From positions 1,025-65,024 of the forward strand of contig CAMUPZ010000001.1 of the NCBI GenBank assembly GCA_947095985.1: a DNA stretch of 64,000 nucleotides, written 5' to 3'. Under the pieces are notes generated by a model. It did no database searches. It worked only from the letters and a program-made list of their open reading frames with translations, and was not told the DNA's origin. This document shows, in pieces, positions 12,000-28,966 of the stretch. The stretch's first letter is position 1. The number at the start of each line of letters is the position of its first letter. A program made the translations under genes and the position numbers. Source of the DNA: an uncultured Candidatus Saccharibacteria bacterium (lineage in GTDB: Bacteria > Patescibacteriota > Saccharimonadia > Saccharimonadales > Saccharimonadaceae).

Positions 12000-12016
12000 T
12001 ATCCCTATTATAACAC

Positions 12017-13702
12017 TTACTGTACTCGCTTACGGTAGAGTATATTTGGCGCAAACATGACTGAATATACACCACGGATGATAGCCGTCAATGCAGTTTT
12101 ACCCATTGCCCTTGAGATTGGGTTGCCCTCACCGTATTCCATATGCTTCACGCGCTTGTGTAGCTTCTGCAGCCAACGCAACGAATCATTGCCGTTGTTC
12201 TTATACACTGCGTGGCTTGTAACGTCTGTTCTTGCTAATTTTCGGTCAAGGTCAGTCATGATCTGCACTTCTACTGGCAACCCCTCAGGACCAACGAGCG
12301 CCGAGGCCCTCGAGACACGGTAGGGTGTTTCTTCATCCCTCAGTTCCTGATTTACGACTGCTTTATTTGCCGAGGACAAAGCACCATGAACCGTGTTGAC
12401 GTATGTCGAGTCGCCTTGTACATAAATCGGCTGGCTAACACCATCACCTGAGCGTAACAGCAGATTGTCATTGGCAGTTATGGTGTCCACGAATGATGAA
12501 AATACCTTGGCAAGGTCTTCTGTCTGCGATGCGTGAATGTCTGCAATCTCCTCATCCCGCATCTCATAGTGATGATTTCTATCAAACGTATCGTCACCCG
12601 CGTTGCAAATCACAAGAAAGGCAAACGCGTCCATGATATCATACCCCTCACCCTTCACCGACATTTTCTTTGCGGTTGAGCCGATGGATTTTTGTCGGAA
12701 TAAAACTCGACGCGACGCACCAGCTATAGGTATCGTCAACTCAGCAAAACGGCAATTAACACCGCTATACACTTCATCTGATGTTTCATTAACGATCCAA
12801 CTCACTTCTGGCTTTTCAGACAAACCAAACATCTGCATCGCCAATTCTGCTGGGTCTTTTTCGGCATTCGTACGATACGCTTCAACGGCTTTGTCGATGA
12901 TGTCTTCGCGCCCTTGCCCACGCAATCGATAGATGTTACAGGTGCTGGCCATTTCTGCAGCCATCGCGTCATAACCAATCGCTTCCAAAAATGGACAATA
13001 AAATGATTCTGCTTCAAGAATATTGCGCAGCTGCTGTGAATCCTGCTTGGGCGGATTCTTGAGATTGTCCATCATTTCTGCTACTTTGATGACCAGAGAT
13101 TCAATGTTCACCTCTCCTGCCAATTTTTCCAGCGCAGTACCGCGGATCTCCGGCATACCCATACGCCAACCAGCCACGTTCACCATGCCTTCATATGATG
13201 AATCCATGATTTGTTCTTTGTCGTGTGCACTTATCCCATTTGACTGATGCTTGATAGCCTCTCGGTAATCACGAGCTTCCATACCGATAACCACCTGGTC
13301 GTGCATATAGTCAATGACTGATTTGTCTGAGTCCTCAAGCTGAGCGATATATTCTTTCCAGCCTTCTTGCACACGGTCCGACAGTTTCGCCCTCTCATCA
13401 GTCTCGCGGTGTAACGTACGCCCAGGAATATCGTGCAACAACATAGCATCAGCCATCGCGCGACGCCTTTCAGGGTCAAGTGTCTTGCAAAATGTTGAAA
13501 GTATCTTCAAAGAGCGATACGCGTGACCGATCGCATCTCCCTTCTCTCTGTCAACATCCGCTTCGAGCACGCCAACAAGCTTCTGTGCTTCAGGGCTCGG
13601 ATACCAACTCTCAGGAATATCATGTTTCAGCAGGTCCAGATGCGCAGCATCCGTCTGCCTTTCCTGTGTTGAAGTCGACGCACTTGAATTTTGTTCGCGC
13701 AT
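12017..13702 (-). CDS. Divergent RelA/SpoT-like protein (HD-like + synthetase-like, no TGS/ACT)
   Basis: LLHD, IKVAEMMDNL, EAESFYCPF, FRQKSIGSTAKKM, DIMDAFAF and EVQIMT...SHAVYK are collinear with RSH N-terminal motifs. Confidence 0.65.
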   Translation of the reverse strand: MREQNSSASTSTQERQTDAAHLDLLKHDIPESWYPSPEAQKLVGVLEADVDREKGDAIGHAYRSLKILSTFCKTLDPERRRAMADAMLLHDIPGRTLHRETDERAKLSDRVQEGWKEYIAQLEDSDKSVIDYMHDQVVIGMEARDYREAIKHQSNGISAHDKEQIMDSSYEGMVNVAGWRMGMPEIRGTALEKLAGEVNIESLVIKVAEMMDNLKNPPKQDSQQLRNILEAESFYCPFLEAIGYDAMAAEMASTCNIYRLRGQGREDIIDKAVEAYRTNAEKDPAELAMQMFGLSEKPEVSWIVNETSDEVYSGVNCRFAELTIPIAGASRRVLFRQKSIGSTAKKMSVKGEGYDIMDAFAFLVICNAGDDTFDRNHHYEMRDEEIADIHASQTEDLAKVFSSFVDTITANDNLLLRSGDGVSQPIYVQGDSTYVNTVHGALSSANKAVVNQELRDEETPYRVSRASALVGPEGLPVEVQIMTDLDRKLARTDVTSHAVYKNNGNDSLRWLQKLHKRVKHMEYGEGNPISRAMGKTALTAIIRGVYSVMFAPNILYRKRVQ

Positions 13703-13748
13703 AACCTGCTTATTATAACACACAAAGCTTTAAAAATCAATAGTAAGC

Positions 13749-14768
13749 TTAGGCAAAATAAATCCGCATCAGCTCGCGTGCCACCCTGTCGGCATCATGG
13801 CGAATTAGGCTACGTTGAGCTGCCAGCGGGTCGCTGCCGGAATTTTTATTCACCCAAGCAGTATCAGCAATCAAGCGCTTGCCCGAGGCATAATAATGCT
13901 TCTTTTTCAACAAATCCTTATCCCACTCCACTAAATATTCACCGTCATGAGCATATTTTTTAATCAAATCTTCTGGCGGACGATGATCGTTATATAACAC
14001 ATAGTCCATATTCACTCCTGAAAATCGCTCAATTTCATCCGCAAAATCCGCCACGGTAAAACCATCAGTCTGTGTTGGCTTAGTCACTAAATTACAAACA
14101 TAGACCTTCTTCGCCTTCGTCTCCGCCAGCGCCCTAGTTACTCCGCGCACCAGCAACGCTGGAGCCAAGCTACCATACAGCAGCCCCGGCGCAATCACCA
14201 CCAAATCAGCATCTAAAATCGCCTGACGCGCCCTTGGGTTAATGCCGGCTGGCGGCTTCAATTCCAGCCACGGACGCTCACCGCGCGGGATTTGCAATGA
14301 CTCAGCCGCGTGCTGTCCGTTAACAATTGTGCCGTCTTTTAGCTTAATCGACATCGTCGTATCATCCAGAGTAATCGGATATACTCGCCCGTTTACACCC
14401 AGAACTTCACTCGCCAGCTCCACTGCCTCGGCAAAACTCCCTGTCATTTTCTCCAGAGCTGCCATGAACAAGTTGCCAAATGCATGTCCCTTCATACTGC
14501 CTTCGTCAAATCGATAATTAAACAAGTCGCGTACCTTTGGCGAAGTACTCAGCGCCACCAAGCACTGTCGAACGTCGCCCGCAGGCAAAACACCCAGTTC
14601 ATCACGTAACGCTCCGGTTGAGCCGCCATCGTCAACCATGTTAACTAGCGCCGTAATACTATGCGTATATTTTTTTAACCCAGAAAGCAGCGTAAAGCTT
14701 CCTGTTCCACCGCCAATAACTACAACTTTTACCCCAAAATAATCGCTATTCGAACTACTAGTCATCAT
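13749..14768 (-). CDS. yvcK: YvcK/GlmR (CofD-related) UDP-GlcNAc-binding protein
   Basis: GGGTG, DDGGSTG.LR, GDVRQCL, GHAFGN, PGLLYGS and RHD motifs. Confidence 0.9.
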   Translation of the reverse strand: MMTSSSNSDYFGVKVVVIGGGTGSFTLLSGLKKYTHSITALVNMVDDGGSTGALRDELGVLPAGDVRQCLVALSTSPKVRDLFNYRFDEGSMKGHAFGNLFMAALEKMTGSFAEAVELASEVLGVNGRVYPITLDDTTMSIKLKDGTIVNGQHAAESLQIPRGERPWLELKPPAGINPRARQAILDADLVVIAPGLLYGSLAPALLVRGVTRALAETKAKKVYVCNLVTKPTQTDGFTVADFADEIERFSGVNMDYVLYNDHRPPEDLIKKYAHDGEYLVEWDKDLLKKKHYYASGKRLIADTAWVNKNSGSDPLAAQRSLIRHDADRVARELMRIYFA

Positions 14769-14795
14769 GACTTGAATTATAACACCTTGATGCAA

Positions 14796-15464
14796 TTACA
14801 CCAATGTACCTTTTGGTAATGCCCATTCTAAAAATGGCTGCTGCTGACAATTGACAGCATTAATTATATGTGTAGCAATTTTAGCTGGGTCATTGAAGAA
14901 TACATAATCAGTCGGTAAATCCCGACCGTTCCAAAACGGCGTTTTCATAGCACCCGGTAGAAATAGCGCAACTTTTACTGGTAATTTCTGTTCATCCGCC
15001 TGCATTCCCAAACTGCGCGCCAGCCCCGCCTGAGCGTGTTTGGTGGCCACATATACAGCCTCATCAGAGCGCGCCTTAATGCTGCTGGTTGACCCAATAA
15101 CCGTTAAAACTGATTTACGATTCTGAACCAGCATCTTACGCCAAGCCCATTGCACCAGAGGTAAAGCGCCAGAAAAATTCACCTCCGCCATGGAGCGAGC
15201 GTCTGGCTGATCTTCAAAATTTCCGCGCCAGCCATAACCTGCCGCCCAGACAAATTGCTCAATATCATCACCATTTAAAATCTGCTCAATTCGCGAAAAA
15301 GACGCCTCCACTTGATCTGCATAATAAACGTCCAGAGGAAAACCTTCACCATGTTTTTGCGAGTCGTGAGTTTTGCCTAACACCAATACTCGCTCGCCAC
15401 GTTTACGCAATTGCTTAGCCATCTCCAGACCAAGCCCGCTCGTCCCACCAAGAATAATATGCAT
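14796..15464 (-). CDS. Short-chain dehydrogenase/reductase
   Basis: GGTSGLG Rossmann motif, YxxxK (YVATK), PGAMKT. Confidence 0.9.
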   Translation of the reverse strand: MHIILGGTSGLGLEMAKQLRKRGERVLVLGKTHDSQKHGEGFPLDVYYADQVEASFSRIEQILNGDDIEQFVWAAGYGWRGNFEDQPDARSMAEVNFSGALPLVQWAWRKMLVQNRKSVLTVIGSTSSIKARSDEAVYVATKHAQAGLARSLGMQADEQKLPVKVALFLPGAMKTPFWNGRDLPTDYVFFNDPAKIATHIINAVNCQQQPFLEWALPKGTLV

Positions 15465-15488
15465 ATGGTTATTATAACAACGACAATG

Positions 15489-15977
15489 TTAAATGTAAAT
15501 TAATCCTCTGAATCTTGGCCAGGCTTCTTCCAATTCTTCGGCCGAAAATTCCATAGTAGAATCAAGTTTTGGTAAAGGAATTTCTAGGCAAAGTCCGACA
15601 GCAACAGCGGCTACTCGCCTCATAAAATACTCAGCTTTATTTGAAGAGAAGTAGGTATCGCCCCCCCTAAATCTCCCCTTTAATCCCCCAGCAGAAGATA
15701 TACCAAGCTCATCCCGCCAACTGCGCAACTCAGTCCTATCATAAGGGAATTCATATGGCGATTCTATAGACGTGGATCGACTAGCAAGATGCTTCTCAGC
15801 CAACGCTTTGTGTCCCATACATTTACCACTACGACTAGCCAATAATATACGCATATCAAAAACATCGTCCCTGATTTTTAAATCCGTCAATAGAGTAAAA
15901 AGTGAATTATTATCAACCTCACCATTAATAAGACTATCAATTTCAACTCTGGCACCGTAATTCTTAGATTTTTTCAT
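15489..15977 (-). CDS. Hypothetical protein
   Basis: 162-aa ORF co-oriented with its neighbours; no recognisable motif. Confidence 0.6.
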   Translation of the reverse strand: MKKSKNYGARVEIDSLINGEVDNNSLFTLLTDLKIRDDVFDMRILLASRSGKCMGHKALAEKHLASRSTSIESPYEFPYDRTELRSWRDELGISSAGGLKGRFRGGDTYFSSNKAEYFMRRVAAVAVGLCLEIPLPKLDSTMEFSAEELEEAWPRFRGLIYI

Positions 15978-15998
15978 ATATTAAACCTTAGAGATATG

Positions 15999-16580
15999 CT
16001 ACGGTCCTGTAACTACCCTCTTAATATCTCCCCATTCTCTGCCAAAATCTACATTGCCATGAAAACAAGAAACCAACTTGTCTACTTCACCCGAGGGAAA
16101 ATGCTTAGTGGGAGACTTCCTGAGTTTTTCTAATGATAATCCCGAACAATGCAAAGCTACAACCCCAACACGCAGGGCGACTCTAACAACCTCCAAACTC
16201 TGATTATTTTCAAGAGAATCAGGAACAAAAAGCTTGGTTGGTATCAATCTATAAATTCCGCTGCGTAACATAGGATCAGCCAACAGCCAACCACTCACCT
16301 CCACATTCTTGTCTTCGATACCCAGACATTCTGAAATAGATACTCGCGCCTCAGTCTCACCAACTCCACGGACCTTCTCTATCAAATTGCCGTGACTACG
16401 GACATCACCCGCCCTCCTGGCAAACGTCATAGACGCATTTACAGTACCGTCATCCCCCAAAGACCAATCGCCATCATAAACTCCTATCAAACGCCAACTT
16501 CCAACAGAATAATTTCCCTTATTATCGCCGGAATCAATAAAATTAACCTTAAAAGATACGCCACCTTTAAGACTTTCCAT
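15999..16580 (-). CDS. Hypothetical protein
   Basis: 193-aa ORF preceded by TTGACT-N17-TAGAAT with the ATG 7 nt downstream. Confidence 0.65.
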   Translation of the reverse strand: MESLKGGVSFKVNFIDSGDNKGNYSVGSWRLIGVYDGDWSLGDDGTVNASMTFARRAGDVRSHGNLIEKVRGVGETEARVSISECLGIEDKNVEVSGWLLADPMLRSGIYRLIPTKLFVPDSLENNQSLEVVRVALRVGVVALHCSGLSLEKLRKSPTKHFPSGEVDKLVSCFHGNVDFGREWGDIKRVVTGP

Positions 16581-16630
16581 GATTTATATTCTATACTATT
16601 ATATTATAAAAGTCAATGCTACTCTACTGG

Positions 16631-17113
16631 CTAACTCTTTAAGCTACATAGCTCCTGCCATTTCATATGCGCCCCATAGGCTCGAGCTGGCGCATCCACT
16701 TCACTTTTCTGAAGCAATAGCTCCTCAGGATCGATAAACATCACTTCGTCACCCTCTTCACCCGGCGCAAAGTCAAAATTCTCCGGCCAGACACGACAAT
16801 AAAAACAGATTTGATTAGCGTCAATCCGCTCAATATACATCTCGTCCGACGCATCAAAAAGCTGATAGCGCAAATCGCCTTTATAGCCAACTTCTTCGTA
16901 CAACTCGCGTTTCAGCGATGATTCAAAATCCTCATCATAATCCATGCCTCCGCCCGGCAAATCCCAATACGTCCGATTGATTTCCTTAACAACCAAAATC
17001 TGCCCAGCGTCGTTATAGATGAGAGCTTTGAGCGAGATACGGTATAGGTAATCATGGCGAGTCACTCCGACTGAATCTTGCGTTACGAGATGCCCGTTGG
17101 TGAGTTTTGTCAT
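16631..17113 (-). CDS. NUDIX hydrolase
   Basis: Nudix box LPGGGMDYDEDFESSLKRELYEEVG. Confidence 0.92.
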   Translation of the reverse strand: MTKLTNGHLVTQDSVGVTRHDYLYRISLKALIYNDAGQILVVKEINRTYWDLPGGGMDYDEDFESSLKRELYEEVGYKGDLRYQLFDASDEMYIERIDANQICFYCRVWPENFDFAPGEEGDEVMFIDPEELLLQKSEVDAPARAYGAHMKWQELCSLKS

Positions 17114-17121
17114 AGGGACAA

Positions 17122-17811
17122 TTATAACACTTTTAGTCTAAACCCAGCGTAAGTACCATCGTGCTTATATGCCTCCTCGCCAAGGAACGCCGGGATAGTT
17201 TGCAACGTATCGTTATAGACAAAGTTTTTAAGACCGACTGTATCTTTTTCTTCCTCGGGTAAGATCTTCCCCGTCATTTTATAAAAAGTTCGCTCTTGGT
17301 CAACCGCCTCCTCGTCCAAATATCTTGCTATGTCGGTGCATATCTGCTCGTACAGATCATCGTTCAGATGCGAATTTGGCACTTCATAAGCCACGAAATT
17401 CGACACCACCGTCGTGATATCATTTAATGGCGAGACCACTAAATTATCTTTTATGGCACTAGCATTGATAAATCTCTGCACTACTTCATTATCTTTATCT
17501 GCCGTTATCAAAATATCTGGCTGTTCGGTAGTGGTCGTATGAAAATCCAATACCAACTCCGGCTTCAGTAACCGAATCCGCTCCTCAATAATCTTCGCAC
17601 GCCGACCCTCATAAGTATCTAGACTAAGCCCATAACTCCTATTTAGGTCCGATTCGGTATACCGCACATTCTTTGCGTAAGCGCGCGGATTAGCTATGAT
17701 GAACTCTATATTTTCCAACAATTTAGACCGCTTGGCGAGCATATACGCCAGCACATTTGGACCTAATAATTCATTACCGTGGGTGGAAATTATTGCGAGT
17801 ATTTTTGTCAT
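17122..17811 (-). CDS. Succinylglutamate desuccinylase/aspartoacylase-family (M14-like) protein
   Basis: HGNE, NPRA, DLNR and LDFH motifs. Confidence 0.88.
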   Translation of the reverse strand: MTKILAIISTHGNELLGPNVLAYMLAKRSKLLENIEFIIANPRAYAKNVRYTESDLNRSYGLSLDTYEGRRAKIIEERIRLLKPELVLDFHTTTTEQPDILITADKDNEVVQRFINASAIKDNLVVSPLNDITTVVSNFVAYEVPNSHLNDDLYEQICTDIARYLDEEAVDQERTFYKMTGKILPEEEKDTVGLKNFVYNDTLQTIPAFLGEEAYKHDGTYAGFRLKVL

Positions 17812-17946
17812 ATAGCTATTATTCTATGCTGTAAAAACAAATCTGCCAACAATATATGCGCTATTTATTGTATATTATTATAGCTTTATACAAAAAATTT
17901 TGACCATCAACATATACCCTCTTCATACACCTTATTATACCAAAAA

Positions 17947-17974
17947 CCTCGACGGGGACGAACCCAAGTCGAGG
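17947..17974 (-). terminator. Intrinsic terminator
   Basis: CCTCGAC...GTCGAGG stem followed by TTTTT on the minus strand. Confidence 0.65.
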
Positions 17975-18016
17975 TGCTGTGCTTATTATATTAGCAGAGA
18001 TCTCGCGCTTCAGCGA

Positions 18017-18142
18017 TTATTCAACAGTCTCGTCATAATCCATACCGCCGCCTGGCAAATCCCAATACGTCCGCCCAACCTCTTTGACAATCAAAATCTG
18101 CCCAACGTCTTTGTAAATTAGCGCTTTGAGCGAGATATTCAT
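18017..18142 (-). pseudogene. Truncated duplicate of the NUDIX gene (41 aa)
   Basis: Translates MNISLKALIYKDVGQILIVKEVGRTYWDLPGGGMDYDETVE* then SLKRE, versus ISLKALIYNDAGQILVVKEINRTYWDLPGGGMDYDEDFESSLKRE in the intact gene; the stop falls inside the Nudix box. Confidence 0.85.
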
Positions 18143-21100
18143 CCTATATCTTTCATTATTTTATCTGTCTCTAGTAAGATTTTAATAATGCGCTGATAGT
18201 GGTCGATATCGTTCGCAGTCAATACACGACCCCTTCTATCTTTGAGCCACTTTTGCGCCGGCTGATAGCCACCAATGTAAAAATTCCATGCCAGTTCTGG
18301 GATATTGCCAAAATACTGACTATTGTTAATAAAGACTTGGTCACCATCGCGCACCACTTTCTCCACTACGTTATCACCAATCTTAGGAAAAGTGGTATCA
18401 TAATCACCAATTTGTAACGCTTTCATTAAGTGTAATTGACGCAGCTGACCACCCAACTCTGCTTTGCGCCAAAATTCCGCCCATGACTCCGGTCGTGGCA
18501 CGCGTGGAAAATCAGTTTTTAAGAATTCTTTATATTTCTCGCGATAGCTTGGACTGTGTAGCGATGCATAAATATAGTCAAAAATATCTTCAGGGTAAAC
18601 TTTGCGCGACTCTTCAGTTGGCTGCTCAACTTCGGAGAATAATTGTTGTAATTTTTCGACATCAAAATTCGCCCGCCGACCATCTTCGCTTTCGAGGATA
18701 AAGAGCGGAAACTGACTAGATATCTCCGAGGTTTTATTAGATACATAGCTTGATTCCATAATAGCATCAGAAGCTAAAACATGATGAAAACCGTCATTAG
18801 TCTTCTGTTGGCGGCAGGCACCGATACTGATATTTTCATCCTGCTTTAGATAAAGCGGCGCCACCGATTCAATCCCTTGCATACCCGGGCGAGACCAGCT
18901 TCTTGACTCAGAAATCGAATCTATGGCAAAAACCGACGGCGAATCTTCACTTAAACCACGCTTAAAGATCATCGCGATATTCTCCTCGCGGCGCAATCGG
19001 TGTGTGTGTGTGTGTGTGTGTGGCTCGCTACGCTCGCCAATCATGTTCTTCATTACTTTTTCTCTGGACCTCTCAATTACACTAGCGTCATAATAAACAC
19101 ATCTTTTATCAAAAGGTCGGTAATTCATAGGAACGATATATTTCTCATCAAGTACAGCATTCTGCAAACGATCGTAAACTTTACCCCTAGAATAAGACTC
19201 TTTATATCTAGTTATTTTTCTTAATAAATTACTGCTGATTTCATCTACTAAGATATCATCCTTACCTGTCACAATCCCCACCGAATTCACAGGCATTAAC
19301 TCGTTCAACAGAATGCCCTTTTCATATTCCTCTTGGCCTTTCGTATCTTTTGCAACAAAATAAAGCATCTTTTGGTCAAGATTTATCTTTTTAAAAGTAA
19401 CTTCCGTACCTAATTGGTTAAACTTGTCTTGGCGCAGACCAAATATGTCTTGATAATAAACGTCAGCAAACTCGGCTTGTTTGGTATTGTTTTTAACCGC
19501 AATCATAATACTGACACCTTGCATAATATCAAAAACATTTTCGTCCTTACTGCCGTCTGGGGTCGTCTCTCGTTTTTTAGCATTACCGTGGAGATTCACC
19601 ACGAAAATCTTGTCAAAAGTTCTAGCCAAATGCCAGCGCATGCCGCGAAAAGTTGGATTGTCCAAAAACCCATTGTTAGTAATCATTCCTACAATACCAG
19701 AACCATTACGTTCAATCATATCTTCAGCAAAAGCAATAAATTTTACATAGTCATCATTAAGCCACTTAGGATTACGTTCTTTTAGTTTTTGCAATCCACC
19801 TGGCTCAACTTTGTATTTATTAACCAAGGAATTCGCATAATCAGTCTTGTTATTACTTTCGGCAGAATACGGTGGATTACCCATCACTACCATCACTGGC
19901 TTCTCACTCTTCACTTCAGCAGCCAAGCGCGACTCTTCGGTTACTGCCCCTGTCAGGCCAAGACTAAACAGATCTGGCTGTACTGGAATCCCCTCCTCTA
20001 GCGTATTGGTCAGAAAAACATTAAGACGAGTCTTTAGCTTATTGACACCAGTTTCGCGCAACATCATAGCTAGTTTCAGGTGCGCTACTGTATATGGCGC
20101 CATCATCAGCTCGAAGCCAAACAAACGCGGTATTAAATTATCGTTAGCGTAGCTTGGCCATAAGCCAGCTTGCCCACTTTGAAAGTTTTTTTCATAGATA
20201 TATCTGATGGTCTCATTCAGAAATGTCGCCGTACCAACTGCCGGATCAAGGATTTGCACTCGTGACTCTACAATGTCTCGCGTTAGACGATCCTTCCGCT
20301 CTCCTTTTTTACGCCATGGCTGCGTAGCAACCGTTCGCGTTATCGTATCGCTACTCGCAAGCCCCTTCGCAATCCTAAATTCAGTTTTAAGCAACTGGTC
20401 AATCTGTCGAACGATAAACCGAACTACTGGGGTTGGTGTATAGTAAGCACCCATCTTTTTACGTTCTAGGCTGTCATAGCTCTGTAGAAAATCCTCATAA
20501 AAGTGAATAATTGGATCTTTGGTATCACAAGCATTATTGTCTGCAATGCGTAGATGACGATGGACAATATTCCGTACATCACTGACGCTAAAAATTTCGC
20601 ATAACTCGTCAACAATTTTTGCAAGTCGCTTGTCAAAGCCCGTACCAGCGATATGATCGAAAAAATGACGCAGGAATGGATTGCTTGCTGGCACTAGATC
20701 ACGCGCCTCACTACGAGTAAAGTTTTCTGGCGTGTCGTCACCGTATCGCGCTACAAATAGTCCATATACCAATGTTTGAGCATACATATCGGCAAATTTC
20801 GTTTCATCAAGGTCATGCACAAGTAGCCGCTTCATCATTTCATAAATCTTTTCAAGTTCATGCGCTTCTACGTATTCGCTTTTGAGGTAGATCTCCACAT
20901 TATCACGAATACGCCGAGCCTTACCTCCCATAATCTGCGCAAGACGACGGCCACTTTTGATACTCTCTGGTGGCAAATCCAAAAATGCTTGTAGTTCACG
21001 TAACAAGCGCTCGCCGTTTTCGGGCTGAAGATGCAGTTTGCCTTGTTTTACACAACCAAGACTGACTGTCTCATATTTCTCACCATTCTTATAAAACCGA

Positions 21101-21414
21101 AACTCGAGATAATCTGTCAAAACAAGATTAGTATAGCCAGCATATCGCTCCATTTGGTTAGTTTTCTCAGTTTTATCAAGATTTACCGTGATGTCTTTTG
21201 CTTCAGCATAGCCACGAATAATTGAGTTGTTTGACTGCTTCAAGAAAATAAAGTCTGGTGCACCATGCTCTGAATGCTTTGGATCATTCACAGCGACCAC
21301 GTCATCAAAAGTCTCCATAAGGCGCTGCAAAGCAGGTCGATAAGCATGTTCTATGGCATGACCACTGTGAAATTGACGCTTTACTTCAGCAAGATAATCA
21401 TGTATTTGCTGCAT
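18139..21414 (-). CDS. Single-chain Type IIG / Type ISP-like restriction-modification enzyme (nuclease + N6-adenine MTase + TRD, no helicase)
   Basis: PD...EAK nuclease motif, GAYYTP, ILDPAVGT, GNPPY, YRPFD, DFPRVP and IGGYQPAQKWLKDR motifs. Confidence 0.92.
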   Translation of the reverse strand: MQQIHDYLAEVKRQFHSGHAIEHAYRPALQRLMETFDDVVAVNDPKHSEHGAPDFIFLKQSNNSIIRGYAEAKDITVNLDKTEKTNQMERYAGYTNLVLTDYLEFRFYKNGEKYETVSLGCVKQGKLHLQPENGERLLRELQAFLDLPPESIKSGRRLAQIMGGKARRIRDNVEIYLKSEYVEAHELEKIYEMMKRLLVHDLDETKFADMYAQTLVYGLFVARYGDDTPENFTRSEARDLVPASNPFLRHFFDHIAGTGFDKRLAKIVDELCEIFSVSDVRNIVHRHLRIADNNACDTKDPIIHFYEDFLQSYDSLERKKMGAYYTPTPVVRFIVRQIDQLLKTEFRIAKGLASSDTITRTVATQPWRKKGERKDRLTRDIVESRVQILDPAVGTATFLNETIRYIYEKNFQSGQAGLWPSYANDNLIPRLFGFELMMAPYTVAHLKLAMMLRETGVNKLKTRLNVFLTNTLEEGIPVQPDLFSLGLTGAVTEESRLAAEVKSEKPVMVVMGNPPYSAESNNKTDYANSLVNKYKVEPGGLQKLKERNPKWLNDDYVKFIAFAEDMIERNGSGIVGMITNNGFLDNPTFRGMRWHLARTFDKIFVVNLHGNAKKRETTPDGSKDENVFDIMQGVSIMIAVKNNTKQAEFADVYYQDIFGLRQDKFNQLGTEVTFKKINLDQKMLYFVAKDTKGQEEYEKGILLNELMPVNSVGIVTGKDDILVDEISSNLLRKITRYKESYSRGKVYDRLQNAVLDEKYIVPMNYRPFDKRCVYYDASVIERSREKVMKNMIGERSEPHTHTHTHRLRREENIAMIFKRGLSEDSPSVFAIDSISESRSWSRPGMQGIESVAPLYLKQDENISIGACRQQKTNDGFHHVLASDAIMESSYVSNKTSEISSQFPLFILESEDGRRANFDVEKLQQLFSEVEQPTEESRKVYPEDIFDYIYASLHSPSYREKYKEFLKTDFPRVPRPESWAEFWRKAELGGQLRQLHLMKALQIGDYDTTFPKIGDNVVEKVVRDGDQVFINNSQYFGNIPELAWNFYIGGYQPAQKWLKDRRGRVLTANDIDHYQRIIKILLETDKIMKDIG
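19001..19022. repeat. (TG)11 / (CA)11 simple sequence repeat inside the RM gene
   Basis: Read directly; encodes PHTHTHTH; currently in frame. Confidence 0.97.
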
Positions 21415-21418
21415 ACTA

Positions 21419-22846
21419 TTACCCTAAAAGCCTGTCCATACTTACTCTCCTCTGCTCCGTCGTATCCCGCTCACGAACAGTAACGGTGTCATCTTCCAGC
21501 GTCTGAAAATCGATAACCACACAGTGCGGGGTGCCGATTTCGTCTTGGCGGCGGTAGCGTTTGCCGATATTGCCGTTGTCGTCCCACATCACCCGGCCGG
21601 GGTTAATTTTGGCGAGGCTCGCGTAGACTTCACGGGCTTTTTTCACCAATTCTGGCTTGTTCTTGAGTAGTGGCGAGACGGCAAATTTGACTGGCGCTAA
21701 GTGCTCTGGCAACGCCAAATACACCCGCTTTTCACCGTTTTGCTCGTCCTCACGGTACGCACCCGACAACACCGCCATAAGTGCCCGCTCGACACCAAAC
21801 GACGGCTCGATGACGTGCGGAACAAATTTTGTGTTCGTCCCCTTGACGGTGTATTCCATGCTTTTGCCACTGACCCGTTGAATGTTCATCAGATCAAAAT
21901 CGGTCCGGTAGGCGATGCCCATCAACTCCTCGCGACCAATTGGATAATCGTACTCAATGTCGATCGTCTTTTTGCTATAGTGCGCCCGATCCTCCGCCGG
22001 CACGTCCAGCTCGTGGATGTGCTCTGGTTTCAAGCCCAGTTCTGCCAAAAACGCATGCGTCGCCGCCAGCAATTCATCAAACGCCTCCTGCCAATACTCA
22101 GGGTTGACGAAGTATTCAATCTCCATCTGCTCAAACTCCCGAGAACGGAAAACAAAATCTCGCGGCGCAATTTCATTGCGAAATGCCTTGCCCTGCTGAG
22201 CAATTCCAAACGGCAAGTCTGGATAAAAACTATCAACAACGTTTTTGAAATTGGTGAAGATTCCTTGGGCTGTTTCCGGGCGAAGATAACTTATAGAAGT
22301 TGGATTATATTGCAACGCATATATCGTCTTACCTTTTGGTACTATAGCCCCCTCTACGTCCTTACCTATTTCAATTGAATCTCCACCAGAAGGTCCAACA
22401 AAAGTTTTAAACATCATATTGAACATGCGCGATTTACTCAAAGGATTACCGTCGGGGCTTTTGATACCCTTCTCCGCAATCAACTTGTCCATTTGCTCCA
22501 TCGTCAAGCCATCCGCGTCAATTCCATTGTCTTTAAGGATATGATCCGTACGATAACGGCGGTGATTGACCGTATCTTCGCACAGCGGATCGACGAACGT
22601 ATCGACATGACCACTGGCCTGCCAGACTTTCTGATTCATCAAAATCGCCGCATCAATACCGTACATGTCGTCGCGCTCGTCAACAAACCGGCGCCACCAC
22701 AAATTCATGATATTACGCTTCAGCTGCACGCCCAGCGGACCGTAATCCCACGTACCGCTCAGGCCGCCATACACATCTGACCCCTGATAAATAAAGCCGC
22801 GACGCTTACACAGGCTGATAATATCTTCCATTTTTGCTTGACTCAT
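21419..22846 (-). CDS. glyQS: Glycine--tRNA ligase (homodimeric GlyQS type)
   Basis: CKRRGF, DYGPLG, YLRPETAQG, FRNEI, REFEQME, IEPSFG and IGKRYRRQDEIGTP motifs; start uncertain (22846-22885). Confidence 0.97.
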   Translation of the reverse strand: MSQAKMEDIISLCKRRGFIYQGSDVYGGLSGTWDYGPLGVQLKRNIMNLWWRRFVDERDDMYGIDAAILMNQKVWQASGHVDTFVDPLCEDTVNHRRYRTDHILKDNGIDADGLTMEQMDKLIAEKGIKSPDGNPLSKSRMFNMMFKTFVGPSGGDSIEIGKDVEGAIVPKGKTIYALQYNPTSISYLRPETAQGIFTNFKNVVDSFYPDLPFGIAQQGKAFRNEIAPRDFVFRSREFEQMEIEYFVNPEYWQEAFDELLAATHAFLAELGLKPEHIHELDVPAEDRAHYSKKTIDIEYDYPIGREELMGIAYRTDFDLMNIQRVSGKSMEYTVKGTNTKFVPHVIEPSFGVERALMAVLSGAYREDEQNGEKRVYLALPEHLAPVKFAVSPLLKNKPELVKKAREVYASLAKINPGRVMWDDNGNIGKRYRRQDEIGTPHCVVIDFQTLEDDTVTVRERDTTEQRRVSMDRLLG

Positions 22847-22922
22847 CAAAAAACCTTTCTCCATGTTGGCAACATGGCGATTCACAATTATTACCTACAG
22901 TATACCATTTTTGACGGTAATA

Positions 22923-23600
22923 TTACACCGCCGCGTGTTGCCGCACTGCCAGCCAGCAATCATTGACCACCTCAGTTATCCCGCCAATTTGCGCCACATT
23001 CGCTAGCGGTTTCGCTTGAATGAGCCGAAGCAGCTTGATGGCGTCCGCCGACAAGTCGCCCTGCTCCGCTGGCCGCAAGCCCTTTTCTGTACTGTCGTAC
23101 ATATATTTTTTATCAGGCGACAACGCCTGAGCCGCCACATCGGTGCGCAGATTCAACTCATCGCCCAGCAGACTGGCATATTGCATATAAAACCAGGTTT
23201 CAATAAGCTTTTGGTTAACTACCGGATTATTTAATTGCTCTAGCACCTGACTTAGCACAAAATACCATTCCGGCTCGTCAATATTTTCACTCGCCGCCGA
23301 CACCAGCTTCATCGCCGCATAAGCAAATTGCATCCGCTCGTAATCTTCCAAAATATGCCGATAAAACGCCGCCAGCCGCGCCGAGGTCAACAATCCCAAA
23401 TCTCCGCGTCCGGAACGAATCACCACGTCACAAATCGCAAATAGTTCAATGCCGCCCGCCAGTTTCGACCGCTCGCGCCGCACACCCTTGGCAATGACAC
23501 TGCGCCGGCCTTTCGGCGTCAGTAGTTGCAATACTCGATCCGCCTCGGCGTAATTCGTCCGCCTCAGTACAATCGCTTTTAACCGCTCACTCTTTCCCAT
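22923..23600 (-). CDS. recO: DNA repair protein RecO
   Basis: AIVLRRTNYAEADR..LT..G..AKGVR..SKL N-terminal OB-fold pattern. Confidence 0.92.
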   Translation of the reverse strand: MGKSERLKAIVLRRTNYAEADRVLQLLTPKGRRSVIAKGVRRERSKLAGGIELFAICDVVIRSGRGDLGLLTSARLAAFYRHILEDYERMQFAYAAMKLVSAASENIDEPEWYFVLSQVLEQLNNPVVNQKLIETWFYMQYASLLGDELNLRTDVAAQALSPDKKYMYDSTEKGLRPAEQGDLSADAIKLLRLIQAKPLANVAQIGGITEVVNDCWLAVRQHAAV

Positions 23601-23955
23601 CCAAAACCTCGCTAAAAACTGCCCGCGCTTCATCCGGGTGCATTGACGCCTTATCCAGCAGCTCTCTCACGCCAAACGGCCGCAAATCCTCCAAATTAAC
23701 ATCCGCATTACTACAAACCACAATTGGTAATCTCGCCAAATCAGCATGCGACCTCAGTTCATTCAGCAGCGCCACCGCCGTTTCGCCCGCCAGCAGCATA
23801 TCCAAGACAATCGCTTCCGGCTGCCAATTGTCAATCATTTCCATCGCCTGACCGCCAGAAACCACCACCCGCGCTTCCGCGCCAACCGCCGCCGCATAGC
23901 TGCATAAAATATCCGCCCAATTTTTATCATCCTCGACAATCAGCAACTTTTTCAT
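23587..23955 (-). CDS. Single-domain response regulator
   Basis: LIVEDD, LDMLL and DK receiver motifs; ATGA overlap with the kinase stop. Confidence 0.88.
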   Translation of the reverse strand: MKKLLIVEDDKNWADILCSYAAAVGAEARVVVSGGQAMEMIDNWQPEAIVLDMLLAGETAVALLNELRSHADLARLPIVVCSNADVNLEDLRPFGVRELLDKASMHPDEARAVFSEVLDGKE

Positions 23956-24668
23956 AGCAAGCTCAGCTGCCAACTAATCGGCACTTCCACGTAAAATGTC
24001 AATCCGTCCCGATGCCTGATTAGCCCAATTTGGCCATTCATTGCCCGGGCAAATTGGCTAGCCACATAAATACCCAAGCCGCTACTTTCCGGCCGCGTCC
24101 GCACCGTTTTTCGCGCATCCATCTCATCAAGCAGCCGCCGATATTCCTTCAAACTCATCATCGGTCCAAAATCACGCACACTTAACCTCACCGCGCCACC
24201 AACAGCCTTAACCGACACTTTTATCTCTGAGTCGTCCTCGGTATATTTCAGAGCGTTGTTTAAAAAATTTGCCAAAATCCGCCCCAATAACGTCCGATTC
24301 GCCAATATCAATCGGCTATTGCGCCCGCTCCGAGGCCAGCTAATTTTCCGCCCATAAAGCACTGCATTAAATCGCGTTTCCGCGGCCATTTGCTGACATA
24401 TTGCCAACGGATTAACTGGCTCCAGCGGAAACAATGACGGTGTCAAATTTGCCGAATTTGCTAAGTCGACCGTTAACTGCAGTGCCTGCTCGGACGTCTG
24501 GACGATACGCTGCTGGATCTGTTTTTTATCAGCCTCACTCGTCAAATCATCGCCGAGCATTAGCGTCAATTGCCGTATTAAAGACAACGGCGTTTTTAGC
24601 TCATGCGCCGCCACCAAGACACTCGGCAGCCCTCCAAAATCAGCATCACTCCACTCTTTACCTGCCAT
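23952..24668 (-). CDS. Histidine kinase lacking sensor/TM domains
   Basis: H-box AHELKTPL near the N-terminus, N-box NFLNNALKY, DFG, GLG. Confidence 0.9.
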   Translation of the reverse strand: MAGKEWSDADFGGLPSVLVAAHELKTPLSLIRQLTLMLGDDLTSEADKKQIQQRIVQTSEQALQLTVDLANSANLTPSLFPLEPVNPLAICQQMAAETRFNAVLYGRKISWPRSGRNSRLILANRTLLGRILANFLNNALKYTEDDSEIKVSVKAVGGAVRLSVRDFGPMMSLKEYRRLLDEMDARKTVRTRPESSGLGIYVASQFARAMNGQIGLIRHRDGLTFYVEVPISWQLSLL

Positions 24669-24703
24669 ACATTTCTAGTATAGCAAAACTTGAGCCGGTT
24701 TTT

Positions 24704-25363
24704 CTATTCAGCAATTTTTACAGTGCCTAATATCGTCTGGAAATCTGGCTTGAATGTGTCCGCATCAGTTGAGAAGCGGATGGTCTTGTCACGGACCTTC
24801 ATCAACACGACAGATCCACGCAGCTCCTTCTCGAACGTACCATCAATGCGCGTAGCGGAGATTCCGTTAAACTCAGTGCTACTTGAGGTCAATTCACCCT
24901 TCTTTAGTCGTGATTGATACTCATTCAGCACCGTATCCATATTCTTGTTGATAATCTCCAGCCTTAATGCAAATCGACTATTTTTATTAGTTATCGAAGG
25001 AACTGAAACAGGGTGAAAATAAGCTTTGTAATCACCCCTGTCGCTGCCATCGTTTGCTATATACACACTCCAAGTTTTTGTATACATGAACGATACTCGA
25101 CCGTATTCAGTAGGACCAACAAATTCAACACGTAGATTCTTAGCTTCGTCTGAATACTTCCTCCAATCAAACTCAGCCTGCTCGCGCTTACCCTTGGCAA
25201 CCTCAATTGCCACTTTACTATCAACATTGCTTTTTTCATGGGAATATTGCATGTACGCCCAAATAGCCAGTGAACCAGCAATTAAAAATAATATCAAACA
25301 GCCGATTGTACCGACCATCCAGCCGTTAACTGAGCCGCGCTCTTTTTTATCTCTTTTCATCAT
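24704..25363 (-). CDS. Membrane-anchored protein with pilin-like N-terminus
   Basis: Basic leader ending KKERG, then a hydrophobic helix and a beta-rich soluble domain. Confidence 0.6.
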   Translation of the reverse strand: MMKRDKKERGSVNGWMVGTIGCLILFLIAGSLAIWAYMQYSHEKSNVDSKVAIEVAKGKREQAEFDWRKYSDEAKNLRVEFVGPTEYGRVSFMYTKTWSVYIANDGSDRGDYKAYFHPVSVPSITNKNSRFALRLEIINKNMDTVLNEYQSRLKKGELTSSSTEFNGISATRIDGTFEKELRGSVVLMKVRDKTIRFSTDADTFKPDFQTILGTVKIAE

Positions 25364-25404
25364 ATTTTAGAGTATAGCTTATGCTTTAAGTGATGTAAAG
25401 CACT

Positions 25405-25614
25405 CTATTCTACGCTAAAATCTTCCCCAAGCACTTCAATATCATGTCGCATATCTTCTAACGTAGACGTAATTTTCTTTGACAGCTCTCGAGCCTCAAT
25501 AAACTTCTGCTTAGCTTCATCCAAATTAAAATCATCGCTCCGAAACCACGCAATTCGCTCGTTTAACTCTGTCATCATCTGCTCAATTGTCATTTCGTCG
25601 TTCACTATCTTCAA
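25405..25614 (-). CDS. xseB: Exodeoxyribonuclease VII small subunit
   Basis: Short helical ORF directly after xseA with an LDEA...F pattern; start uncertain. Confidence 0.8.
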   Translation of the reverse strand: MKIVNDEMTIEQMMTELNERIAWFRSDDFNLDEAKQKFIEARELSKKITSTLEDMRHDIEVLGEDFSVE

Positions 25615-26683
25615 TCCTCGCTTTCATAATTATATCCTTTGTTGTAATCTTAACAATACTACCAACCTGTAAATCACCGCTAATCATAGCGTAGCCCCTC
25701 TGTAACGCCATTTCTGGATCGTATTCAGCAATAATTTTTTGTTGCGACAATGTTGCATTTATAGCATCCCTGACCTGACTTGACCACTGCTCAAGCGCGT
25801 CTTTTTGCAACATTGTTGCTCTAAGTATCTGCTCGTCAATAGCTCTCTTAATTTCATCTTTTACACCAATTAACCGAAAATGTAGATGCCCGACTAATTC
25901 ATGTTTATCTGGAAATAGCAGCTGAGCAACATTACTAGGTGTTGCACCTCGCACATCCGCCGCCAGATCACATAAACTTTCATCAATCTCGTGCCCAATG
26001 CCGGTTATTATGGGCACGCGACTACCTGCTACCACTCTAACTAGCTGTTCATCATTAAAGCTTGCCAAGTCCTCAGCACTACCGCCACCACGAATTAAAG
26101 CAATTACCTCTGGCGGTTCTGCCATTTGATTGAAATATGAAATTGCCCGTATAATCTGATCTGCCGCGCCGTCACCCTGAACATTAACATTAGCGACAAT
26201 AAATTTCACACCGCCCCAACGATCTCGAGAGATTTTCATAAAGTCCGCGTAACCTGCCGCCTTTGTACTAGAAATAACAGCCACCCGCTGTGGATACCGT
26301 GGTAGCGACCGTTTACGATTAACGTCAAATAGTCCTTCGGTAGCCAATTTCTGCTTCAGAATGTCGAAACTCCGTTTTAGATTACCCTCGCCTAGTGGAA
26401 AAACTTTCTGAACTTGCAAATTAAACTTACCGTCGTCCCTCAGGCTTGGCGTCGCCCGGACCACCACTTTCATACCATCCTCGATTGGCGTCCGCAAATT
26501 ACCAAACCCTACAAAACAATTAACCGATCCTTCCTCATCCTTCAGAGTAAAAAAGGCATATTTTGGCGGGTACGACTTAAAGCTGGCAACCTCACCCTCA
26601 ACTTCAACCGCGCCAGCAAAAACAGCCTCAAAAGTCTGATTAACGACCGCCAGGAAATTACTAACGCTAAACCTGGGAGTCAT
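25583..26683 (-). CDS. xseA: Exodeoxyribonuclease VII large subunit
   Basis: EGEV, FFTLKD, RGGGSAEDL, GIGHEID and ATPS motifs. Confidence 0.95.
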   Translation of the reverse strand: MTPRFSVSNFLAVVNQTFEAVFAGAVEVEGEVASFKSYPPKYAFFTLKDEEGSVNCFVGFGNLRTPIEDGMKVVVRATPSLRDDGKFNLQVQKVFPLGEGNLKRSFDILKQKLATEGLFDVNRKRSLPRYPQRVAVISSTKAAGYADFMKISRDRWGGVKFIVANVNVQGDGAADQIIRAISYFNQMAEPPEVIALIRGGGSAEDLASFNDEQLVRVVAGSRVPIITGIGHEIDESLCDLAADVRGATPSNVAQLLFPDKHELVGHLHFRLIGVKDEIKRAIDEQILRATMLQKDALEQWSSQVRDAINATLSQQKIIAEYDPEMALQRGYAMISGDLQVGSIVKITTKDIIMKARIEDSERRNDN

Positions 26684-27734
26684 TTGGCTTGCCATATTTA
26701 ATCAATGCGTGCTGGTAAAAAATATAGCCAAAGATAATAGTGCCGGTTAGTAAAATTGCCCTCGTTAAAATAATTCCAGCAATTGCTAAGTCCGGTGGCG
26801 TGCCTGCCATGCTTAAGAATATGATCATGATTGTCTCGTAAACCCCCGTACCACCGGGCGTAAATACAAAAAGTGCCGCTAATCCCGCAACTCCATAGCC
26901 CACCATTAAGATTGCTGGATTAACAAAAACCCCTAGCGACATAAACGCTACTGTAAACATTGCCACGTCAAAGGCTGTATAGACAATCCCCCATATCATA
27001 GGTTTCCTTAGCAGCTTTGGATGATTCGCCAAATCCTGGAAATCATCTTGCATGTCAACAAAGAAGTCCTCCACCTTCTGAGCATTCATAATCCGTCGTT
27101 TTTTACCGAAAGTCACATATTTTACTAGTATATTAATAAACTTCGAGACACCTGCGGCCGTTGTCTGCATACGCCGCTTGGATGAAAATATAAATATTAA
27201 TCCAAAAGTCAGCGCCAGTACCATTATAATCAACAAAAAGCTCGCCGCTACAATATACCTATTGACCTTACCATCAACAGCCAGAGCCAGCACGGCAATC
27301 ACCAATAGGATCAAGAGAGATAAAAATCCTGTCACATAACGAATCACCTGGGCAAATGTCGAGCGCGCCGAACTCACCCCCAGCTTATGCATCCGCCATG
27401 TTGTATATGAAATTCCACTAACGCCCCCCGACGGAAAAATATGGTTAACCAGGTTCAATTCTAGGGCAATCCTTGTCTGTTCTAATCTGGAAATATGGTG
27501 AATCAGATTCTTATCCCTAAGATAAGAGAAGATCATTTCGCCACCAGCAAAATACACGATAATTTGAAATGGTAATAGTAAGAATAACAGCCATAAATCT
27601 GCGTTTAAAAATAGTCCCCACGCCTTTACCAGCTCATGTCGTGACAGGAAAACAACAATAGCTAAAACTGCCAACGTCAAAACGCTCATAATAGTTCGCG
27701 GCGACTTAAATAATTGCAAGACCTTAGGTAGCAT
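26667..27734 (-). CDS. Lysylphosphatidylglycerol synthase TM-like / flippase-like membrane protein (UPF0104)
   Basis: About 8 TM helices; PSGG and TPGGTGVYE motifs. Confidence 0.8.
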   Translation of the reverse strand: MLPKVLQLFKSPRTIMSVLTLAVLAIVVFLSRHELVKAWGLFLNADLWLLFLLLPFQIIVYFAGGEMIFSYLRDKNLIHHISRLEQTRIALELNLVNHIFPSGGVSGISYTTWRMHKLGVSSARSTFAQVIRYVTGFLSLLILLVIAVLALAVDGKVNRYIVAASFLLIIMVLALTFGLIFIFSSKRRMQTTAAGVSKFINILVKYVTFGKKRRIMNAQKVEDFFVDMQDDFQDLANHPKLLRKPMIWGIVYTAFDVAMFTVAFMSLGVFVNPAILMVGYGVAGLAALFVFTPGGTGVYETIMIIFLSMAGTPPDLAIAGIILTRAILLTGTIIFGYIFYQHALIKYGKPNDSQV

Positions 27735-27772
27735 AACCTTCATTATACCACGATAAATGGTATAATTACGAT

Positions 27773-28966
27773 ATGTTCATCGCTATCCTTGGCCGACAAC
27801 CAGAAATATCTATCGCCGAGTTAGAGGCGGTTTATGGTGCTGAAAGAGTTAAAAAAATCTCTAGTCAAGCTGCTACAATCGACTCTGATAACTTTTCTAT
27901 TGATAAACTGGGTGGAACAATCAAATGTGGCCGCGTCGTAAGTCGCGTAAAATCACAAAAATCTGACCATTACACCCTACTCAAGGCATCTAAAATTATC
28001 ACTGAAAAGTACACAAAAAATCTTTCACATAGCCAGAAAAAAATAACTTTTGGAATTAGCTTTTACGGCAATAAAGTAGATCCCCGAAATATTCAAAAAA
28101 TCGGAATTATTTTGAAAAATTCCCTAAAAAAATCTGGCGTTAGCCTACGTCTAATTCCCAATAAAACCGCCGCCCTCTCCACGGCCACCTCTCATAATAA
28201 TAAACTTGGCAGGTTTGAAACGAAGATTGAGATTATCATAGTCAGAGCTATAAATGGAGATTTTTTGATAGCCGAAAGCCGTGGCACTCAAAATATCAAT
28301 TCATACACACAGCGCGATCGCGAGCGCCCAAAGCGTGATGCCTTTGTCGGAATGCTCCCGCCTAAGCTAGCGCAAATTATGATTAACCTTTCTGGCGCAA
28401 AACCTGGCGATTACCTCTGGGATCCGTTTTGTGGTACAGGAACCGTTCTCCAAGAGGCCACTCTGCTAAGCATCAACGCCTACGGCAGCGATCTCAGCGA
28501 TAAGATGGTCGATTACACATCGGAAAACATGCGCTGGCTGGAAAAAACTTTTTCCACAAACACCGCCTGGCAAGTTTTTCAAGCTGATGCCACCTCTGTC
28601 AAACTAACCTCCGAGCAAAAACAGCAAATTACCCATATTGTCTGCGAAACATACCTAGGTCAACCCTTCTCCGCCCCACCCAGTCCCGCAAAGCTTAAAG
28701 AGGTGGTTGGAAATTGTAATCATATTATTAGTGAGTTTTTGAAGAACATACATGATCAAATTAGCCCAGAATCGATGCTGTGTATAGCCGTTCCCGCCTG
28801 GCAAAATCAACATGAACAATTTACACATTTGCCCCTGATAAAAAGCCTAAGCAAACTTGGATATCAGCCAATTACCGATAAAAATCTCATATATCATCGT
28901 CCAGATCAGGTAGTTGCCAGAGAAATTATGGTATTAAAGCCCATAGACATGACTAAAACCGCTTGA
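27773..28966 (+). CDS. Trm11/UPF0020-like RNA methyltransferase
   Basis: MLPPKLAQIMINL, DPFCGTGT and GSD motifs. Confidence 0.8.
   Translation: MFIAILGRQPEISIAELEAVYGAERVKKISSQAATIDSDNFSIDKLGGTIKCGRVVSRVKSQKSDHYTLLKASKIITEKYTKNLSHSQKKITFGISFYGNKVDPRNIQKIGIILKNSLKKSGVSLRLIPNKTAALSTATSHNNKLGRFETKIEIIIVRAINGDFLIAESRGTQNINSYTQRDRERPKRDAFVGMLPPKLAQIMINLSGAKPGDYLWDPFCGTGTVLQEATLLSINAYGSDLSDKMVDYTSENMRWLEKTFSTNTAWQVFQADATSVKLTSEQKQQITHIVCETYLGQPFSAPPSPAKLKEVVGNCNHIISEFLKNIHDQISPESMLCIAVPAWQNQHEQFTHLPLIKSLSKLGYQPITDKNLIYHRPDQVVAREIMVLKPIDMTKTA

Follow-up and report, generated by a model that had tools for sequence, protein, structure and literature searches.

Tandem recognition units behind a frame-setting CA repeat in a DrdV-like restriction–modification gene of Saccharibacteria: a candidate specificity switch

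The restriction–modification (R-M) gene at 18139–21414 on the minus strand of the window, the 64,000-nucleotide stretch of Candidatus Saccharibacteria DNA analysed here, carries two tandem recognition units behind a dinucleotide repeat, with a restart site inside the first unit. This two-unit and restart layout is a real and conserved feature. Judging from the ribosome-binding site and start codon with which unit 1 opens, the repeat may by itself switch specificity, through a one-chain or a two-chain enzyme; the initial annotation had taken it for a switch of expression. The reading that we put forward, with an even balance of belief and doubt, is a three-frame switch without an OFF frame, in which the gene would alternate between one chain and two translationally coupled chains, and the cut would pick the module that docks. 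If true, the mechanism would be surprising. A frameshift annotated as 'OFF' would give an active enzyme with another target, and pseudogene calls and phase-variation surveys would misread such genes. A host-dependent bacterium (assembly of about 0.7 Mb) would vary its anti-phage specificity with neither an invertase nor an undefended state, and the enzyme would be a natural case of competing sub-domains selected by chain connectivity.

The R-M protein and its two recognition units

In the assembly the gene is in the fused (in-frame) state as a 1091-aa ORF, and nuclease, adenine methyltransferase and recognition domain then all lie in one chain. The PD...ExK nuclease motif covers residues 51–73 (21196–21264, minus strand), and its residues P53, D54, E71 and K73 are invariant in 35 aligned homologues. 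The methyltransferase motifs (19867–20247, minus strand) comprise a SAM-binding motif at residue 390 and NPPY at residue 513. The N-terminal part of the recognition domain ends with its last conserved helix (residues 785–791; 19042–19065, minus strand) directly before the repeat-coded linker. Of four Pfam matches in all, PF18135 is found in two stretches (E = 2.6e-66) and PF02384 with E = 3.1e-14; a helicase family is not among the four.

The closest PDB relative is DrdV (7lo5), with E = 1.2e-19 using a profile of single-unit relatives. DrdV is a Type IIL enzyme (PDB 7LO5/7LVV) and, in the part of its description cited here (bioRxiv 10.1101/2021.01.06.425610), shares the order of nuclease, helical connector, methyltransferase and recognition domain. 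Unlike the R-M protein, it is one chain with one unit, and neither a second unit nor a repeat-coded linker occurs in the aligned region. The initial annotation had called the family Type ISP/LlaBIII-like. This label holds for the C-terminal domain PF18135, which is common to both, and for the unit, which in Type ISP enzymes (LlaGI/LlaBIII) includes loop VI and a conserved hairpin. It does not hold for the class. As far as the Type ISP sources cover them, those enzymes have a Superfamily-2 helicase-like motor between nuclease and methyltransferase and one unit only, and the LlaBIII chain is 1578 aa long against 1091 aa here. Because the helicase domain was not found, the R-M protein is set outside Type ISP proper and, judged from its sequence, is a DrdV-like Type IIG/IIL enzyme.

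The gene is single-copy in the assembly. It starts 4 nt past the stop of a glycyl-tRNA-synthetase-like gene (window 21414–21421), with which it is probably co-transcribed in the lineage of loci L015, L016, L017 and L095. In other lineages the neighbours differ, and the downstream genes vary between loci. A 98%-identical counterpart of the C-terminal region is encoded in a Candidatus Saccharibacteria record. At the 3' end, the R-M stop codon is overlapped by the ATG of a truncated NUDIX copy (window 18002–18141, minus strand), of which 136 nt are 82% identical to 16904–17039 (minus strand) in the intact NUDIX gene at 16631–17113.

Unit 1 (KRG...SRSWSRPG type; 18847–18984, minus strand) has 46 aa and four predicted strands, and loses its first residues in the split state. 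Unit 2 (RQQK...SNKT type; 18694–18837, minus strand) has 48 aa and is joined in the ordinary way to the C-terminal part. These two consecutive units after the CA tract had been read from the sequence before; their coordinates and translations are exact, and both are in frame in the 1091-aa ORF. Their protein likeness to each other gives a score that is reached by 6 of 10000 shuffles. A unit profile of 46 positions, built from 82 single-unit homologues, matches the R-M protein at residues 812–857 (43.5 bits) and 861–907 (68.3 bits). Both matches span profile positions 1–45, and there is no other match of at least 10 bits in the protein. Each unit thus fills the whole single-unit profile, which answers the question of whether both map to the same position in homologues. 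With a broadened profile, 309 of 385 proteins have one unit, 51 have two, one has three and 24 have none detected, so ordinary family members carry a single unit, as the initial annotation had it. The idea of two alternative recognition modules also stands, as each unit lies end to end on the single module of about 46 aa in DrdV-like enzymes. Each amounts to a full recognition sub-module. Purifying selection acts on both, and they are as strongly conserved as the C-terminal domain, with pN of 0.08–0.26 and pS of 0.54–1.08 (19 pairs, 7 loci).

Sequence profiles align one unit to DrdV residues 777–814, including D803 and K807, which contact bases according to the cited part of the DrdV paper (bioRxiv 10.1101/2021.01.06.425610). 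The unit also aligns to H1368, G1372 and Q1373 of loop VI in LlaGI (with a numbering offset of 164 counted from the alignment). In the accessible portion of the LlaGI source, these loop residues read position +3, two bp from the methylated adenine.

The CA tract, the internal start and natural alleles

The (CA)11 tract (19000–19022, minus strand) sets the reading frame by its length and codes for part of a predicted disordered loop, with pLDDT under 50 at residues 795–809 in the AlphaFold model. It is the longest of three dinucleotide tracts of at least 7 units in the assembly. The other two, (AG)10 at C11 19202–19221 and (AT)7 at C20 10842–10855, possibly mark further phase-variable loci. A Shine-Dalgarno-like GAGGAG (18982–18987, minus strand) stands 9 nt ahead of an internal ATG (18972–18970), which encodes Met815 at the fourth position of unit 1. 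This start and the stops of the two slipped frames are packed into 18962–18972 (minus strand): TGA (18971–18969) overlaps the ATG, and TAA (18964–18962) stands 8 nt on. The stop at +8 largely follows from the Phe-Lys/Asn codons of the unit type and is not independent evidence. Shine-Dalgarno sites with this spacing are in use across the genome, where GGAG occurs in 95 of 379 start windows versus 13 of 379 controls, with a peak at −13 to −8. The ORF that opens at the ATG (18139–18972, minus strand) has 277 aa, comprises clipped unit 1, unit 2 and the C-terminal domain, and stands alone in slipped alleles.

The start is confined to the first slot. Met is found at unit position 4 in 16 of 18 first units with in-frame upstream residues, in none of 50 second units and in 2 of 289 single units. 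At the DNA level, ATG, Shine-Dalgarno word and a repeat of at least 10 nt occur together in all 13 distinct unit-1 contexts, which derive from about six lineages, and the counts therefore overstate independence. ATG is found in 0 of 10 unit-2 contexts; among 116 single-unit contexts, one has ATG and Shine-Dalgarno word and none has a repeat that long. Units of the ERS type carry the Met in the first slot but lack it in the second. One lineage without the Met has three-frame tails that imply a GTG start, overlapped by TGA two codons further, and gene callers start 267-aa ORFs at this GTG on contigs of up to 805 kb. The restart thus appears to have arisen in two forms, ATG and GTG. The two codons between ribosome-binding site and ATG retain the hydrophobic-small pattern of the first strand of the module, as expected if unit 1 docks in the fused chain.

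The repeat unit turns over between lineages (CA, GA, CT and CAGAG in DNA, and four-base units deduced from protein). The repeat keeps the same site across lineages, and its unit is never a multiple of three. A short GC-rich motif coding for GERSEP (window 19023–19038, minus strand) stands before the CA tract and occurs once in the genome. It is common to the otherwise divergent CA-tract lineages L019, L021 and P0417, suggesting that the tract region itself may move between backbones. Three other accounts of the tract were discarded. Dual coding, with another module in a slipped frame, is out, since a stop ends each slipped frame no more than 10 nt from the ATG. Tuning of linker length, like that by Type I spacer repeats, is unlikely with repeat units of 2, 4 or 5 nt. 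An assembly artefact is out, as the layout recurs with other repeat units in independent assemblies.

Natural alleles are found in all three frames, and split ones are common. Among the 15 listed of 33 members of the cluster nearest to the R-M gene, the fused frame accounts for 6, the frame closed by the overlapping TGA for 5 and the one closed by the TAA for 4, and alleles of every frame lie on contigs of up to 118–170 kb. Tract length varies between near-identical genes and shifts the frame (for example L100 versus L101 and L102). The 13 rows of two-unit loci with both anchors, which include two pairs of rows from the same or nearly the same contig, divide into 7 in frame and 6 out of frame. 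The gene has the form of a repeat-driven phase-variable gene, in that a non-triplet coding repeat shifts the frame among near-identical alleles. Both halves are intact in the split loci L017, L022, L099, L101 and L102, where the whole gene is present. A stand-alone 277-aa ORF (P0400), with 267 residues identical, is found on contigs of up to 153 kb, and 31 of the 38 best matches to the C-terminal 277 aa are stand-alone ORFs whose first codon is the restart; some stand-alone C-terminal ORFs come from contigs broken at the repeat (L010, L020 and L097). Contigs from 4 of 19 sequencing runs are short scattered pieces that skip the CA tract.

A candidate fused/split switch and its rivals

Slippage in the CA tract would give either one long chain or two coupled chains cut in the predicted disordered loop. 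The second frame opens where unit 1 begins, with its ribosome-binding site and ATG; translation would restart there, and the two halves would come together as an active enzyme. In the fused chain, unit 1 with its complete first strand would emerge first and dock, alone or mixed with unit 2, and unit 2 would loop out. In the split enzyme, unit 1 would lack the start of its first strand, and unit 2, natively joined to the C-terminal domain, would dock instead. This polarity, with unit 1 in use in the fused enzyme, unit 2 in the split two-chain enzyme and a switched target sequence, is read from sequence, and we consider it equally likely to be right or wrong. Over longer times, strains also exchange units with one another through recombination, changing a single slot each time. 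In a first AlphaFold model, unit 1 has four strands and is docked, unit 2 is looped out with pLDDT under 50, and the C-terminal domain is mostly at pLDDT 75–94; the alignment behind this model placed all single-unit rows on unit 1 and so steered it toward unit 1. In a second model made with two-unit rows only, both units are near or below pLDDT 50. A geometry with unit 1 docked and unit 2 looped out is possible as modelled.

By analogy, the closest precedent is Hpy99XIV (JHP1272) of Helicobacter pylori, together with HpyAXVI (HP1353-HP1354). In the sections of the source drawn on here (PMC3936762), a second four-strand module, added through a frameshift, takes the place of the resident one and alters the −2/−1 bases of the motif, and full-length JHP1272 methylates both motifs (92.3% and 72.8%). 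A first tract is described by the authors as ON/OFF, and a figure legend puts it in the aligned four-strand region. Like the R-M gene, these are by that description single-chain Type IIG enzymes in which a slippery tract governs a second four-strand module without an invertase. Unlike it, they gain the extra module at the C-terminal end through a second tract, while the first tract acts as ON/OFF; here the modules are tandem and internal, with one upstream tract and fused and split states with a dedicated restart. The R-M gene accordingly shares with an Hpy99XIV-type switch the second module but not the C-terminally appended position. A G tract also fuses or splits the S gene of HpyUM032XIII (PMC4450513) and the hsdS gene of NgoAV (PMC6789123), and the motif changes, as stated in the parts of those papers cited. 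The likeness lies in a homopolymer tract that fuses or splits a specificity gene; the difference is that the tract there acts on a separate S subunit, which has two whole recognition domains. HpyUM032XIII can do without its second half, and its truncated first half functions on its own as a dimer (PMC4450513, in the same part), whereas in the R-M gene the cut falls within a single domain and would make the restarted half indispensable. In searches of the main texts of open-access papers, we found neither a description of a tandem-module enzyme with an internal restart nor a paper on this R-M gene in Saccharibacteria.

The strongest competitor, a tentative but serious one, is plain ON/OFF phase variation, in which activity would be limited to the fused chain, with a single specificity or a mixture, and the restarted C-terminal ORF would be inactive or have another task, such as inhibition or the retention of ribosomes on the message. 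The even spread over three frames also fits such a neutral switch, and the H. pylori genes agree with it in that the first tract of JHP1272/HP1353-54 is an ON/OFF switch and the full-length enzyme serves both motifs (PMC3936762, in the sections cited). It leaves unexplained why a ribosome-binding site and start, in two forms, are confined to slot 1. A Rho domain was not found in the source genome (88.7% complete), and there is no conserved downstream gene to protect; the variable downstream genes and the missing Rho match together weaken an anti-polarity role for the restart. A fused/split switch could also have another outcome, which we find rather unlikely: the freed N-terminal unit 1 would displace unit 2 when split, or the balance of cutting and methylation would change. 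The free-ended module wins in H. pylori (PMC3936762, again in part), and the unbiased fold from two-unit rows favoured neither unit. However, the first strand of unit 1 is clipped when split, almost wholly in the GTG lineage, and the upstream residues of unit 1 are conserved in the fused frame, as the switch with unit 1 docked in the fused chain would have it.

Joint folding of both units into one enlarged domain, reading a longer or degenerate site, seems improbable to us. It would suit the short linker between tandem units (about 0–8 residues) and the presence of both units in all upstream-complete members of the clade, but each unit alone fills the single slot of ordinary enzymes, single-unit relatives function with just one unit of these types, and the 14 pairings mix freely. 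More improbable still is a cassette array in which recombination between the units deletes one and leaves a single-unit enzyme, as the initial annotation had envisaged. Repeated flanks, which might permit such a deletion, exist at the protein level in P0107, a three-unit protein of another lineage. In the R-M gene, on the other hand, DNA likeness between the units is at chance (reached by 241 of 1000 codon shuffles), and the longest common word is 7 nt. Inverted or long direct repeats flanking the units were not found among the repeats listed for 12000–28000, and the gene does not have the form of an invertible or duplicated specificity cassette (shufflon or inverton). The one-unit derivative that had been sought is missing as well: all 17 clade proteins with upstream sequence have two units, and no single-unit member with the two-unit backbone was found in 385 proteins and 226 loci, of which 51 have no detected unit and may hide divergent pairs. 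One-unit entries with that backbone are gene calls that start inside a unit. The six same-genus remnants described below start inside unit 2 and are without the whole upstream gene, which is a further point against deletion between units.

Unit exchange, distribution and remnants

The expectation that units are exchanged between strains by recombination is borne out by 14 pairings of unit types, reshuffled such that different pairs turn up on backbones that are nearly the same. Within one 90% cluster, slot 2 is constant and slot 1 varies (P0124 and P0416). The same type never occurs twice in any of the 14 pairings, a statistically weak observation with only one type seen in both slots. The RQQK type is the commonest in single-unit relatives (120 of 287), yet is never seen in slot 1; the ERS type is seen in both slots. 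In the two-unit clade, about ten types of 46-aa module, interchangeable and in 14 pairings, form a natural library, which would offer a direct route to the recognition code of the large DrdV/Type ISP family and to enzyme reprogramming.

The gene is sparsely distributed. Nine of 130 same-genus genomes match it, two with the two-unit gene, six with a 3' remnant and one with a distant relative. No further two-unit locus was found among matches in 400 order-level and 400 family-level genomes. In a profile search of 1.84 billion representatives, the best 150 matches include, with near-full coverage, three clade representatives, P0246 and P0269; one unit was detected in P0246. Plasmid matches (15 listed of 201 records) mostly start at unit 2.

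Only the 3' remnant is present in six genomes of the genus and in one metagenome contig (loci L004–L008, L018, L098 and L222). In all remnants the first base is the same one within unit 2 (window 18753), the foreign sequence ahead of it is shared, and some copies now carry stops. They look like the product of one old capture or deletion event. Outside the clade, P0107 (1170 aa) has three tandem units and P0269 (720 aa) has two, with no repeat-like linker in the protein. The spacers of P0107 resemble normal post-unit sequence, suggesting that recombination-based switching may apply there.
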